From IMG/VR virus record IMGVR_UViG_3300025127_000031, positions 1 through 60,802 of that record: 60,802 nt of DNA. One strand, given 5' to 3'. Shown one piece after another: positions 6,627 to 10,965 of this stretch. The stretch's first letter is position 1. Each line of letters begins with the position of its first letter. Source of the stretch: a virus. Its lineage: Duplodnaviria > Caudoviricetes. The notes beneath the pieces were generated by a model. It worked only from the letters and a program-made list of their open reading frames with translations, searched no databases and was not told the DNA's origin. Both the position numbers and the translations under genes were made by a program.

Positions 6627-6943
6627 AGGGCGGAGTTTGGTTGTCTCATTTCAATCTCAGCCCTGCTGTAATCCATTGTGTTGGAAGGGGTTCCAGCTAT
6701 TAGGGCGGATCTCGACCCCCTTAAACCTCTTAGTTCTAGTTCAACGACCCTTTTGGTACACCTTAATGGTTGACAGTTTTGGCTGCCCAAAAGGTACACC
6801 AAAAAGGTACACCAAAAAGGTCGTTGTGACTAGAATAAATAAAAATAAGGAGGTAAGAATGATGAGACTCACGTGAGATCCACTGCCCTGCAGTTGATTT
6901 GCATCGAAAACAAAGTCCGCCCTGAGACACCAAAGTCCGCCCT
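6627..6943. repeat. Large imperfect palindrome with iteron-like repeats; candidate replication origin
   Basis: Nested inverted pairs share an axis at ~6785: 6627-6648/6923-6943, 6734-6757/6811-6835 and central TTTTGG-CTGC-CCAAAA; tandem AAAAAGGTACACC x2.5; CAAAGTCCGCCCT x2. Confidence 0.7.
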
Positions 6944-6947
6944 CACC

Positions 6948-7646
6948 ATGGCAAACACTCTTACAAACCGTAAAAAAAGAGCAAAAAACATTTTAGATAA
7001 TTTAAATTTTAGGTATCTTCCAAACGAAGAGGATGAAACTTTAAATGCTTTAGGCTATTACAGAGGGTTTTTTTGTCCTTTTGGCCATGAAATACGTGAT
7101 AAAAAAGAACACTGGTGCTATCACTGTGTACGACGTATTCAATCAAATATCTGTGGTTTAGACATTAATTATTTGCATAATGCTTATCAACAAGATGCAA
7201 AAGATATTTTAGACTTTGTTGAAATTAAAGAGCCTCATGAGTGTTGGCCAATTCAATTAACAGCTGATGAGTATAGAAAATATGATACACCTAAAAGAAT
7301 TTCATTTCCTTCTTATCGAACTGGTCAGATGGATCGTCGTACTGATCGTGTTACTTTGCATAAAGCAATCTATACATTTACTTGGGGTGATGTAGGCAGC
7401 ATGCGTATTAGTAGACGTTGTCGAAACAAATGGTGTGGTAATCCATTGCATATGTGCTCTAGCTGGAATCGAGCCCATGTTCCAAAAGATTTTCATTACC
7501 TTGATCTTGAGTTAAACCCAAAGAAATTATTGTTAATGGCAAAACGTCATCGTCATAATTTGCCTATTGAAGAATTAATTTCTATGTCTTATCGACCAAC
7601 GATTGAAAATCCTTGTGATATTTCCCAGAAGTACAATGGAGAATAA
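6948..7646 (+). CDS. Zn-binding HNH/His-Cys-type endonuclease-like protein
   Basis: Likely start ATG 6948; YYRGFFCPFGH...WCYHC Zn motif; ECWP...LHKAIY...CRNKWCGNPLHM. Confidence 0.6.
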   Translation: MANTLTNRKKRAKNILDNLNFRYLPNEEDETLNALGYYRGFFCPFGHEIRDKKEHWCYHCVRRIQSNICGLDINYLHNAYQQDAKDILDFVEIKEPHECWPIQLTADEYRKYDTPKRISFPSYRTGQMDRRTDRVTLHKAIYTFTWGDVGSMRISRRCRNKWCGNPLHMCSSWNRAHVPKDFHYLDLELNPKKLLLMAKRHRHNLPIEELISMSYRPTIENPCDISQKYNGE

Positions 7647-8656: not shown

Positions 8657-8824
8657 ATGACTACTGATTCCTTAGGCAGATTAGACCAAACTAAAGATTT
8701 AATCTCTGATTATTGGACAGGTAAAACAGAACACAAAGAAGAGATAATTAAACCTACTGAATTTTTTAAAACATATTGCGCAGTTGAACCTTGGATGCCA
8801 GAATGCAAAGAATATGATGTCTAA
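8657..8824 (+). CDS. cp12: CP12-like small protein (55 aa)
   Basis: Missed by ORF track; ends EHKEEI...YCAVEPWMPECKEYDV, matching the CP12 C-terminal C-x3-P-x3-EC-x2-YD motif. Confidence 0.6.
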   Translation: MTTDSLGRLDQTKDLISDYWTGKTEHKEEIIKPTEFFKTYCAVEPWMPECKEYDV

Positions 8825-8827
8825 TTT

Positions 8828-9562
8828 GTGTCTACTTTAATCACCAATCTTCCTCCGGTTAAGGTATGGGTACGTAAAGAATATCTTCGTGATCTTCGTG
8901 ACGGTCATGGTGAATATACTCTGGGTTATTGGACCAGTGTAAAATCTATTCCTGGGCGGGTATTTTATTTTGAAACGTTCCTCCCAGAGTACGGTGCTTT
9001 ATTTGACAAGTTACCAATTTCTGCTTTCTTGCTTTGGGACTCAGACTTTCCTGATGCCCCTGAAACACCAGCACCAGATTTACCGCTAGAAGAATTACAA
9101 TTTTGGAATTGTTTTAGTTATGACATTACCACCCTGGAAAAAAATCTTACGTTCACAATGGGATGGGAAATCAGAACCAAAACCCACGGTACTATCCCTG
9201 GCGAATATTTGTTTACTATTGACAGTTTTAATGGCGACCGCTCTAGGACTGATATCTCTTTCGCAGAGACGCCGGATGAACACAAATCCTTCAATATTAT
9301 TGGGTTGCCGAATGGTCAAATTGCAGCGTATCCCAACAACAGATGCCGTCTTGCTGACCCTTCTTTGTCCCCCGAGACGTTAAAACAACCTGACTTTCTT
9401 GTTTCAAGTCGATATTTTCAAGTTGAAAGTCCCAATGCAAAATGGGGACGCCTTGGTGAATCAGAAGAATATTTCTGGGAAACAAAAACTGAGCAAAACA
9501 AAAAACCAAATGAATATATGCTTTTTATTCCAGCGGATGATCAAGAAGAATTTGACCGGTAG
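8828..9562 (+). CDS. Conserved phage hypothetical protein
   Basis: 244-aa ORF; LITNLPP..VWVRKEYL, EHKSFN and AAYPNNR motifs recalled from marine phage proteins. Confidence 0.75.
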   Translation: MSTLITNLPPVKVWVRKEYLRDLRDGHGEYTLGYWTSVKSIPGRVFYFETFLPEYGALFDKLPISAFLLWDSDFPDAPETPAPDLPLEELQFWNCFSYDITTLEKNLTFTMGWEIRTKTHGTIPGEYLFTIDSFNGDRSRTDISFAETPDEHKSFNIIGLPNGQIAAYPNNRCRLADPSLSPETLKQPDFLVSSRYFQVESPNAKWGRLGESEEYFWETKTEQNKKPNEYMLFIPADDQEEFDR

Positions 9563-9589: not shown

Positions 9590-9736
9590 ATGCAAGAGAT
9601 TCTTACTAATCCTATTACTTGGATTATTATTGCAGCAGCCTCTGAAATCATCGCTTTATCTCCTTTAAAAGATAACAGCATTATTCAAGTTGTATTAAAG
9701 GCTGTGCTTAAGCTTAAGCCTTCTGTAAAAAAGTAA
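9590..9736 (+). CDS. Small membrane protein (holin-like?), ends at a slippery site
   Basis: Missed by ORF track; MQEILTNPITWIIIAAASEIIALSPLKDNSIIQVVLKAVLKLKPSVKK; TAGAAT 24 nt upstream. Confidence 0.7.
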   Translation: MQEILTNPITWIIIAAASEIIALSPLKDNSIIQVVLKAVLKLKPSVKK

Positions 9737-9791
9737 AAGGCATCACTCCTGACGATGCTGTGTTTCTTGCACAGTGGTCGTTACGGAGTGA
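9727..9791 (+). promoter_or_regulatory. Candidate -1 programmed frameshift signal
   Basis: In-frame A_AAA_AAG (9727-9733), 5-nt spacer, stem GGCATC/GATGCT, loop ACTCC complementary to GGAGT (9785-9789); -1 frame open to TAA 9903. Confidence 0.6.
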
Positions 9792-9899
9792 CAAACAACG
9801 CATTAAAGATGAAATAAAACGTCGTAAAAACATGGCTTTAACAAGTCATCGGATTGATGAAGCTATTCGTAAATACAAAGAAGAAACAGGCTGGGATGA

Positions 9900-10058
9900 T
9901 TAATCATCTAATGCTTGAAACCAAAAGATAAATCCATCATTTGCTTCAACCCAACGTTTGGTTCTGTAGGCATCTTCTTTTTCCATTGTCTCGCATTTGC
10001 GCGTCTTGCCACACTCCCAACAAACGTTGACACGAATGGGTTTATCTTTATTTTTCAT
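9900..10058 (-). CDS. Small hypothetical protein (52 aa)
   Basis: Missed by ORF track; MKNKDKPIRVNVCWECGKTRKC...IFWFQALDD. Confidence 0.55.
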   Translation of the reverse strand: MKNKDKPIRVNVCWECGKTRKCETMEKEDAYRTKRWVEANDGFIFWFQALDD

Positions 10059-10136
10059 TGTATTAATTTATTTACTAATAAAACTATAGAAGCAACACCC
10101 CAAAAACCCAATCCAAAAATTGCTATTGCAATTCCT

Positions 10137-10817
10137 TCATACGTTAAAAACTTTTTTGGTAATTTCGTATTTAAGGTCTCGGTCTTCTTTACCGTTCCAT
10201 CCTCCGTTGATTCTGTAACAACAGGCGTCGAATCCTTGTCCAAGACAAATACCTAATAGATCGTTATCTTTAATCCATGTTAAAGCAGATCTAAAAGGAT
10301 AATGATCAGTTACATAGTCACATCCGCGTTCCACGATAAGTGGATCATGCAATTCAGCGGCCAGGCGCGTGTAGTTGTACTTTCCAGTTAGCATTAGTAC
10401 ACCTGTACCTTTATATTTAGGTCCGTCATTTGGACCATTACCTAGATCAGCACGGTTGTTATAGGCTGTTCCATCGGCGATTTCTTTCATCCAACGAAAG
10501 TTTCCTGTTTCATGCATAAGGTTTGCAATTAACATGCACATAGCTTCTTTATGCTGATCAAAACCTGTTGTCATCAACAACTTGTTGAAATCACCACAAA
10601 AAGTTGCATCAAAGTTACTGGCTTGATATCCAGTAAGCTGCTGCATGATGTCAGGTGTGATAATTTTCCCTGAAGGATTTGCAGGACCTGCACGATACAG
10701 ATCCGCAAATTCATCAAGTTGTTCATCTGTTAAAACAGATTCAAGCCAGTTCCAGGCGGCAAGCTGGTGGGATTCTTCTTTGTAATACTTAGCTGCTTTG
10801 CTCAGGTTGATCGTCAT
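10137..10817 (-). CDS. GH19 chitinase-like endolysin
   Basis: LMHETGNF..MKE, DLGN..DGPKYKGTGVLMLTGKYNY, RINGGWNG; likely start ATG 10817 rather than 10922. Confidence 0.85.
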   Translation of the reverse strand: MTINLSKAAKYYKEESHQLAAWNWLESVLTDEQLDEFADLYRAGPANPSGKIITPDIMQQLTGYQASNFDATFCGDFNKLLMTTGFDQHKEAMCMLIANLMHETGNFRWMKEIADGTAYNNRADLGNGPNDGPKYKGTGVLMLTGKYNYTRLAAELHDPLIVERGCDYVTDHYPFRSALTWIKDNDLLGICLGQGFDACCYRINGGWNGKEDRDLKYEITKKVFNV

Positions 10818-10965
10818 TGGTTTCTTCTTCGGGCTCGTATTCCAGGCTATCAATATATTGGCCCAGAAGTTGGCTAGAAAACTGAATAAGGTTTCCATCA
10901 TTAGAAGCACGGGCGGCTGCAAAAGAATTAATTGCAGAAACCAGTTCAGACTTTTTGCAAGCCAT
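10789..10965 (-). CDS. Small hypothetical protein (58 aa)
   Basis: Missed by ORF track; MACKKSELVSAINSFAAARASNDGNLIQF... Confidence 0.6.
   Translation of the reverse strand: MACKKSELVSAINSFAAARASNDGNLIQFSSQLLGQYIDSLEYEPEEETNDDQPEQSS

Follow-up and report, generated by a model that had tools for sequence, protein, structure and literature searches.

The 60,802-nucleotide (nt) stretch of viral DNA analysed here (IMG/VR record IMGVR_UViG_3300025127_000031; hereafter referred to as the window) is a tailed-phage genome, with genes for a primase, a large terminase, a major head protein and tail fibres. On its plus strand, from position 9590, lies a small gene for a 48-residue protein with a predicted membrane helix, the final codons of which contain the slippery heptamer A_AAA_AAG, directly followed by the stop codon. 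Here we describe this gene together with its relatives in Synechococcus phages, and propose that a −1 ribosomal frameshift at the heptamer yields a second, C-terminally extended form of the protein. Positions are those of the whole window, and reading frames are given relative to the open reading frame (ORF) at 9590..9736, which is referred to as the zero frame. The locus comprises the following elements.

9590..9736, plus strand: short-form ORF of 48 codons, residues MQEILTNPITWIIIAAASEIIALSPLKDNSIIQVVLKAVLKLKPSVKK, ending GTA AAA AAG TAA

9727–9733, plus strand: slippery heptamer A_AAA_AAG, phased X_XXY_YYZ with respect to the zero frame, at which the −1 slip is proposed to occur

9734..9736, plus strand: zero-frame stop codon TAA, immediately 3′ of the heptamer, which terminates the short form

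9733..9903, plus strand: −1 frame extension of 56 codons plus its stop codon, TAA, at 9901–9903

9743..9791, plus strand: long imperfect RNA hairpin of 21 pairs with two 1-nt bulges, beginning 9 nt 3′ of the heptamer

Re-reading of the window returned every coordinate given in the original prediction for this locus, namely those of the ORF, the heptamer, the −1 frame stop and the end at 9903. A TAA at 9715–9717 closes the −1 frame, which stays open thereafter (9718 to 9903) and, from the slip site on, encodes a 56-amino acid (aa) peptide, VKGITPDDAVFLAQWSLRSDKQRIK...GWDD (VKGITPDDAVF...ETGWDD). As had been predicted, no start codon stands near the beginning of this frame, in which the first ATG, GTG or TTG is the GTG at 9760, nine codons past the slip site. 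When the reading frames were recomputed, the predicted products had the same lengths as before, 48 aa without slippage and 104 aa after a −1 slip, and the segments GGCATC (9739–9744), GATGCT (9754–9759) and GGAGT (9785–9789), from which a stimulatory structure had been drawn up, are all present in the sequence. The 48-aa protein matches phrog_22542 (E = 1.2e-20, over 42 of 49 profile positions), a family of unknown function.

Loss of the heptamer from homologues had been set beforehand as a check on the frameshift, and the heptamer proved to be retained. Three pooled IMG/VR scans gave 172 loci with the N-terminal domain, in 133 distinct 180-nt contexts. An in-phase slippery heptamer zero or one codon before the stop, together with a −1 ORF of at least 30 codons, was found in 126 of the 133; the heptamer is A_AAA_AAG in 122 of these, G_GGA_AAG in three and A_AAA_AAC in one, and the stop follows it directly in 15 contexts and after one codon in 111. 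The same arrangement occurs in 6/7 genome-collection loci, from a scan that returned only seven metagenome-assembled genome contigs with mixed taxonomic labels, probably binned phage contigs and uninformative on the host. Among cultured phages, the first tblastn relatives of the 48-aa protein were found in the Synechococcus phages S-CBS1 and S-EIVl. The S-CBS1 gene gp22 ends CAA AAA AAG GAC TGA, and the annotated gp23 lies in its −1 frame; the S-EIVl homologue, which is unannotated, ends CCG GGA AAG CGC TGA, with G_GGA_AAG as the heptamer, and the next annotated gene lies in the −1 frame. The site is also kept in 4/4 further cultured phages (KBS-S-2A, S-CBS3 and the T7-like phages S-B28 and 7B11-B). 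At least seven cultured phages of Synechococcus, spread over three lineages, have the arrangement, and Synechococcus is every named host of the relatives.

Conservation of the site goes further than the encoded protein demands, as can be seen from the choice of Lys codons and from an invariant A before the Lys pair. Across the homologous contexts, the Lys pair is written with AAA first in 123/123 and AAG second in 122/123, and the remaining Lys codons of the same ORFs divide into 110 AAA and 140 AAG. The codon preceding the pair encodes V, A, S, Q, G, P, E, T or I, yet its third base is A in 123/123. The final base of the heptamer is G in 125 of the 126 contexts. Contigs from three other studies span the slip site with 12–19 substitutions and no insertions or deletions (indels), indicating that the length of the A run is not an assembly error. 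Where the heptamer is missing, the extension ORF is generally missing with it (L009, L040, L048, L061, L069/L070 and L173), and in these relatives an endolysin or another gene starts within about 12–20 nt. L034 likewise has no heptamer, and its −1 frame continues for only 29 codons beyond the stop; the one exception to this joint loss is L059/L111, in which G_AAA_AAG stands before an intact 86-codon extension. One relative, L179, has a nine-A run before the G around its positions 545–560 (CCA AAA AAA AAG TAG), followed by a 107-codon extension.

Judged by its codons, the −1 ORF is without a usable start of its own. Within 30 codons upstream of the slip site, no ATG, GTG or TTG was seen in the −1 frame. 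From the upstream stop to codon +19, all three are absent in 81 of the 126 contexts and ATG is absent in 119; 42 contexts lack all three as far as codon +39, and in several the first such codon comes only at position 70–71 of 87–88 −1 codons. The GTG at 9760 had been named as a possible independent start. Of the 12 sequences aligned from the window's clade, 11 have it at codon +9; in L006, GTC takes its place, and no ATG, GTG or TTG occurs across 78 −1 codons. Given these startless contexts and the GTC in L006, no conserved independent start is found.

The coding signal of the extension begins at the slip site. The −1 peptides are alike from their first residue (GLIPADGRWLWRF, ALISFGKPGW and VKGITPDD), and within the window's clade the stretch of nine codons that leads up to GTG 9760 shows 19 changes, of which 14 affect the third codon position in the −1 frame. 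Homology between the window's −1 peptide and the extension domain found in other clades (hhalign, 94.2%, E = 1.2e-7) begins at residue I9 of P0001, six codons upstream of GTG 9760. A tblastn search of cultured phages with the window's −1 peptide gave no matches. Together, these comparisons show conservation of the site, of its phase and of the open −1 frame, as well as homology of the extension across clades.

Protein databases also hold in-frame fusions of the N-terminal and extension domains (P0003, P0006, P0014, P0016 and P0017), all as protein sequences only. P0003 has one Lys fewer, and the slippery run is therefore absent from it. When P0016 was used to look for DNA encoding the fusion in frame, only frameshifted relatives were returned. 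Two other kinds of variant were seen beside these fusions. In a sub-lineage represented solely by short contigs (P0004, P0005, P0007, P0011–P0013 and P0020), the zero frame continues for 20–50 codons past the Lys-Lys pair, with a tail that, at the protein level only, resembles an out-of-frame translation of the usual extension. P0009, of 130 aa, combines the small membrane domain with another membrane helix and a coiled coil (phrog_12220; weak holin match, phrog_1296), and represents either a genuine fusion to a partner or an artefact of read-through on a 1-kb contig.

Folding of positions 9734–9800 placed a single long hairpin at 9743..9791 downstream of the heptamer, with a minimum free energy of −28.2 kcal/mol and a z score of −4.49; 1 of 200 shuffles was as good. 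The original prediction had proposed a short 6-bp stem with a pseudoknot as the stimulator. This candidate was rejected, as the minimum-free-energy fold is the long hairpin: the short stem competes with it, and the ACTCC/GGAGT pairing that was to form the pseudoknot makes up its base, or lower stem. An equivalent hairpin was found in 8/8 folded clade relatives (z scores of −2.4 to −4.7), starting 7–9 nt after the heptamer, a spacing suited to the stimulation of frameshifting, and in the distant clade members L008, L047, L090 and L091 it is maintained through different pairs. In a 12-sequence alignment, 85% of the cells are paired and four pairs have changed on both sides, values of pairing and covariation that are reached by 1–5 of 500 shuffles. 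Covariation of the stem, which had been suggested as a check, is thus seen for the long hairpin in the window's clade. Across the family, downstream structure shows enrichment without being general: a fold z score below −2 is seen in 23% of 123 contexts, versus 2% and 7% in two control windows. The long hairpin is probably a clade-level addition and a candidate frameshift stimulator in the window's clade. As a strong downstream structure is not shared by the whole family, the universal signals would be the heptamer and the stop next to it. A separate clade (L035, L036, L072 and L074) has a hairpin of its own about 10 nt after the heptamer, which is kept through differing sequences (CCCACCC/GGGAGUGGG versus CCCUGAC/GUCAGUGG).

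These features suggest the following mechanism. Most ribosomes on the 48-codon ORF would terminate at the TAA at 9734 and release the 48-aa short form. A fraction would slip back by one base on A_AAA_AAG, with both Lys-tRNAs re-pairing on AAA AAA, resume at the GTA at 9733 and read 56 codons to the TAA at 9901, producing the 104-aa long form, so that the N-terminus with its membrane anchor would be common to both forms. The hairpin 9 nt downstream probably pauses the ribosome in the window's clade and raises the slip rate; elsewhere in the family, the heptamer and the stop beside it would act without a conserved structure. For the dnaX heptamer alone, a frameshifting level of 14–16% in vitro is given in bioRxiv 10.1101/2025.10.02.679949. 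The conserved site, the startless −1 ORF and the homologous extension all support the frameshift interpretation with which the original prediction began, and we are confident, on comparative grounds, that this is a conserved programmed −1 ribosomal frameshift, with a real and very probably functional site.

Several observations weigh against this interpretation. AAAAAAG occurs 37 times on the two strands of the window, compared with 38.5 ± 6.3 times in shuffles, which is the chance level, and the significance of the heptamer therefore rests only on its phase, position and conservation. No upstream Shine–Dalgarno (SD)-like element at dnaX-type spacing is evident in the window, as judged by eye and without statistics. 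A look-up of RNA runs that contain this DNA listed none. The median fold z score across the family is −0.34, indicating no general strong structure, and no consensus structure was found in the largest clade (clade B, 34 sequences). Finally, the database protein P0039 contains obvious assembly frame errors, and some of the in-frame fusions may therefore be artefacts.

Were the two reading frames independent genes, translation of the −1 ORF would start at GTG 9760 or follow from termination–reinitiation after the zero-frame stop, and the Lys-Lys pair would be kept as a basic tail. GenBank annotates such separate genes in S-CBS1 (gp22 and gp23), S-CBS3 and S-EIVl, the GTG at codon +9 is widely shared within the window's clade, and reinitiation near a stop occurs in bacteria. 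However, this explanation has to contend with the contexts that are startless to codon +19 and with L006, startless throughout, and with peptide conservation and third-position variation that start at the slip site, upstream of GTG 9760. A basic tail, moreover, leaves unexplained the fixed order of AAA then AAG and the invariant preceding A, which is kept behind nine different amino acids, and two independent genes do not account for the joint loss of heptamer and extension; we regard this arrangement as most improbable. If RNA polymerase stuttered on the A run, one A added in some transcripts would bring the fused protein into frame and yield an identical long protein. Some relatives have longer runs, S-CBS1 with seven A and L179 with nine, and it is in L179 that such slippage would be most plausible; P0016 and P0017 read as though one A had been added. 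Polymerase slippage usually needs runs of eight to nine or more, whereas most sites here have only six A and the three G_GGA_AAG sites only three. The final G in nearly all contexts, which leaves the run unextended, fits the optimum for ribosomal slippage, and the X_XXY_YYZ phase is strictly kept. For these reasons, we consider polymerase slippage very unlikely.

A further alternative concerns the window's clade, in which the hairpin and the complement of the heptamer may form an intrinsic terminator of the convergent minus-strand lysis operon described below, and not a stimulator. A consensus scan did find a terminator-like minus-strand site at 9758..9740, after which comes CTTTTACTTTTTT, complementary to the heptamer region, and the clade with the strongest hairpin is the clade with convergent genes. 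One such site is, however, the chance level for this region (0.7 expected), and the T tract beside the stem is interrupted and varies among relatives. A terminator would also leave the heptamer unexplained in those clades in which the endolysin lies downstream on the same strand, and the spacing between heptamer and stem is that suited to frameshift stimulation. We therefore think it unlikely that termination replaces stimulation here; the two roles are not mutually exclusive, and termination could be a second role of the hairpin in this clade. Lastly, homopolymer runs are error-prone and a few database homologues are in frame, as would be expected if an assembly error or an inactivating mutation had broken a 104-codon gene. 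The recurrence of the arrangement in 126 distinct contexts and seven cultured phage genomes, and the contigs from three other studies that cross the site without an indel, already contradict this explanation, the probability of which is negligible. Programmed −1 frameshifting by the ribosome thus remains the interpretation that we adopt in what follows.

The short form has one predicted membrane helix, with a Kyte–Doolittle 19-residue maximum of 1.68 at residues 8–26, and after it a predicted amphipathic, Lys-rich helix. The charges flanking the membrane helix (−1 on the N-terminal side and +4 on the C-terminal side) suggest an N-out/C-in topology, which under the positive-inside rule would put the added helical domain on the cytoplasmic face of the membrane. 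An AlphaFold2 model of the fused homologue P0003 had a predicted local distance difference test score of 82.7 when built with 68 sequences and of 58 (poor) with five. In this model, the membrane helix (residues 10–25) and the amphipathic helix (31–45) are followed by a long, confident helix (65–96), and there is a small β-hairpin. The prediction of a complex of two P0003 copies scored 0.00 and is uninformative either way. The ESM Atlas returned only nameless viral clusters (scores of 0.85–0.87), and neither the 48-aa protein nor the extension nor the fused homologues received a functional name from PHROGs, Pfam or NCBIfam; the sole family matches were phrog_22542 and phrog_15106, both labelled 'unknown function'.

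The functional context of the gene is provided by its neighbours, which in the window are the following.

6873–7646, plus strand: 257-aa ORF with an HNH/endonuclease match (phrog_1872, E = 1e-12)

8657–8824, plus strand: 55-codon ORF with a weak CP12-domain match (E = 0.02), which fails the cut-off

8828–9562, plus strand: gene of a 'PurM/ferredoxin' cyanophage family (phrog_3704, E = 1e-90), upstream of the frameshift gene

9900..10058, minus strand: convergent 52-codon ORF with a CxxC...C motif, which ends the minus-strand block with the endolysin and is listed as context only

10055..10243, minus strand: 62-codon ORF with a C-terminal membrane helix, overlapping the 3′ end of the endolysin gene, with no family match

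10137..10922, minus strand: endolysin-like gene of 261 aa, convergent with the frameshift gene

The 52-codon ORF has homologues at the same place in clade relatives and no family match. The 261-aa ORF matches phrog_181 (endolysin, E = 5e-24) and phrog_14712 (chitinase, E = 7e-14); the label 'GH19' that it had been given was left unconfirmed, as no Pfam match was obtained at E ≤ 0.1. The two ORFs of host-metabolism type (8657–8824 and 8828–9562) directly precede the frameshift gene, and the 62-codon membrane ORF is an alternative holin candidate for the phage of the window.

Across the relatives, the retrieved flanks contain an endolysin homologue at 70 of 83 loci, of two different enzyme types, and the endolysin mostly starts about 200–260 nt after the small ORF, on the same strand. 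A membrane/coiled-coil ORF resembling S-CBS1 gp21, which belongs to phrog_26178 and has a weak XhlA-type 'hemolysin' match, lies just upstream at 62 of the 83 loci. In 7B11-B, the gene stands between a tail-fibre-related gene and the small terminase gene, a position that we take to be equivalent to that of the T7 holin gene 17.5. The short form has the small size, the membrane helix and the charged C-terminal tail of a holin, the latter features by prediction only, and its gene lies in a lysis cassette beside the endolysin, with the qualification that in the window itself the two are adjacent but convergent. The two forms may therefore belong to the lysis machinery, the short one as a holin-like protein and the long one as its regulator, with a fixed ratio between them. 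We put this role forward tentatively, from gene position, and rate its chances as somewhat below even; it is favoured because genomic context is the only functional clue.

Four results weigh against a role in lysis. No holin, antiholin or spanin family was matched in PHROGs, Pfam or NCBIfam, and a Foldseek search of the PDB and BFVD with the P0003 model gave nothing at E ≤ 0.001. The N-terminal domain shows more conservation than is usual among holins, and the gene in the window's clade lies outside the endolysin operon, in convergent orientation to it. The holin/antiholin pair of the original prediction is accordingly not supported as it was written, having been derived from gene position with no holin family matched. 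A broader proposal, that frameshifting is a lysis-timing device of many Synechococcus phages (siphoviruses, T7-like podoviruses and the S-EIVl lineage), is more speculative still, and we consider it doubtful at present. If it were true, the slip rate on A_AAA_AAG would set the ratio of the 48-aa holin-like effector to its extended antagonist or regulator, and the time of lysis would be coupled to the translation state of the host, for example through the supply or modification of Lys-tRNA or through ribosome loading. Such a device would be a recoding-based counterpart of the dual-start holin/antiholin of lambda.

The arrangement can be compared with four well-known systems. In mechanism, it resembles orfA/orfAB of IS3-family elements (IS911 and IS150), in which a zero-frame A_AAA_AAG with a nearby zero-frame stop gives a short product by termination, and a −1 slip into a startless ORF gives a longer fusion, often with the help of a 3′ stem–loop. 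By contrast, the present gene, which belongs to phage lysis regions, would yield a very small membrane protein and a lengthened version of it rather than transposase components; the sequences are unrelated, and no upstream SD-like stimulator is evident. Escherichia coli dnaX (tau/gamma) uses the identical heptamer and a 3′ hairpin stimulator, which is found here in the window's clade only; however, slippage in dnaX leads to an early stop and a shorter product, whereas here it would lengthen the protein, and the SD-like element located 10 nt upstream of the dnaX heptamer is not seen in the window. Like the tail chaperone genes G/GT, the present gene would combine a −1 frameshift, at a site kept across very divergent phages, with a short and a C-terminally extended protein in a fixed ratio, and G_GGA_AAG, the heptamer type of three relatives, is that of lambda G/GT. 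It differs from them in adjoining an endolysin and in encoding a 48-aa membrane-helix protein without relation to a chaperone family. Nor does a tape-measure gene lie directly downstream: the neighbours are the endolysin and the gp21-like ORF or, in the window, the PurM-like gene and the convergent lysis block, and no second frameshift, of tail-chaperone type, was seen near the 1,202-aa ORF of the window. The likeness to lambda S105/S107 is a functional analogy, in that one lysis-region gene specifies two membrane proteins in a set ratio. In lambda S, the two forms arise from two start codons and differ by two N-terminal residues, whereas here a C-terminal domain of 56–90 residues would be added by frameshifting, and the holin function is a proposal. 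The gene is not a member of the IS3, dnaX, tail-chaperone or lambda S families.

The gene represents a new use of a known mechanism. To our knowledge, conserved programmed frameshifts in tailed phages are textbook knowledge only for tail chaperones and for a few capsid or replication genes, and the present one, which recurs in more than 100 environmental contigs, would add a second case, both widespread and ancient, from another functional module. In the literature searched, no frameshift was described in a holin-like gene or a cyanophage lysis-region gene; the PRFect supplementary tables, which may contain lists of sites, lay outside the search. If both forms do control lysis, they would offer a testable route by which marine cyanophages set their latent period. 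Genome annotation is affected in any case, as the extension is given an invented start or omitted and the small ORF is sometimes missed. Thus, the extension is unannotated in S-B28 (L182, 1645–1774) and 7B11-B (L183, 1647–1818), the small ORF itself is unannotated in S-EIVl (L002, 2504–2644), and the records of S-CBS1, S-CBS3 and S-EIVl show the extension as a gene of its own, starting at a GTG or TTG.

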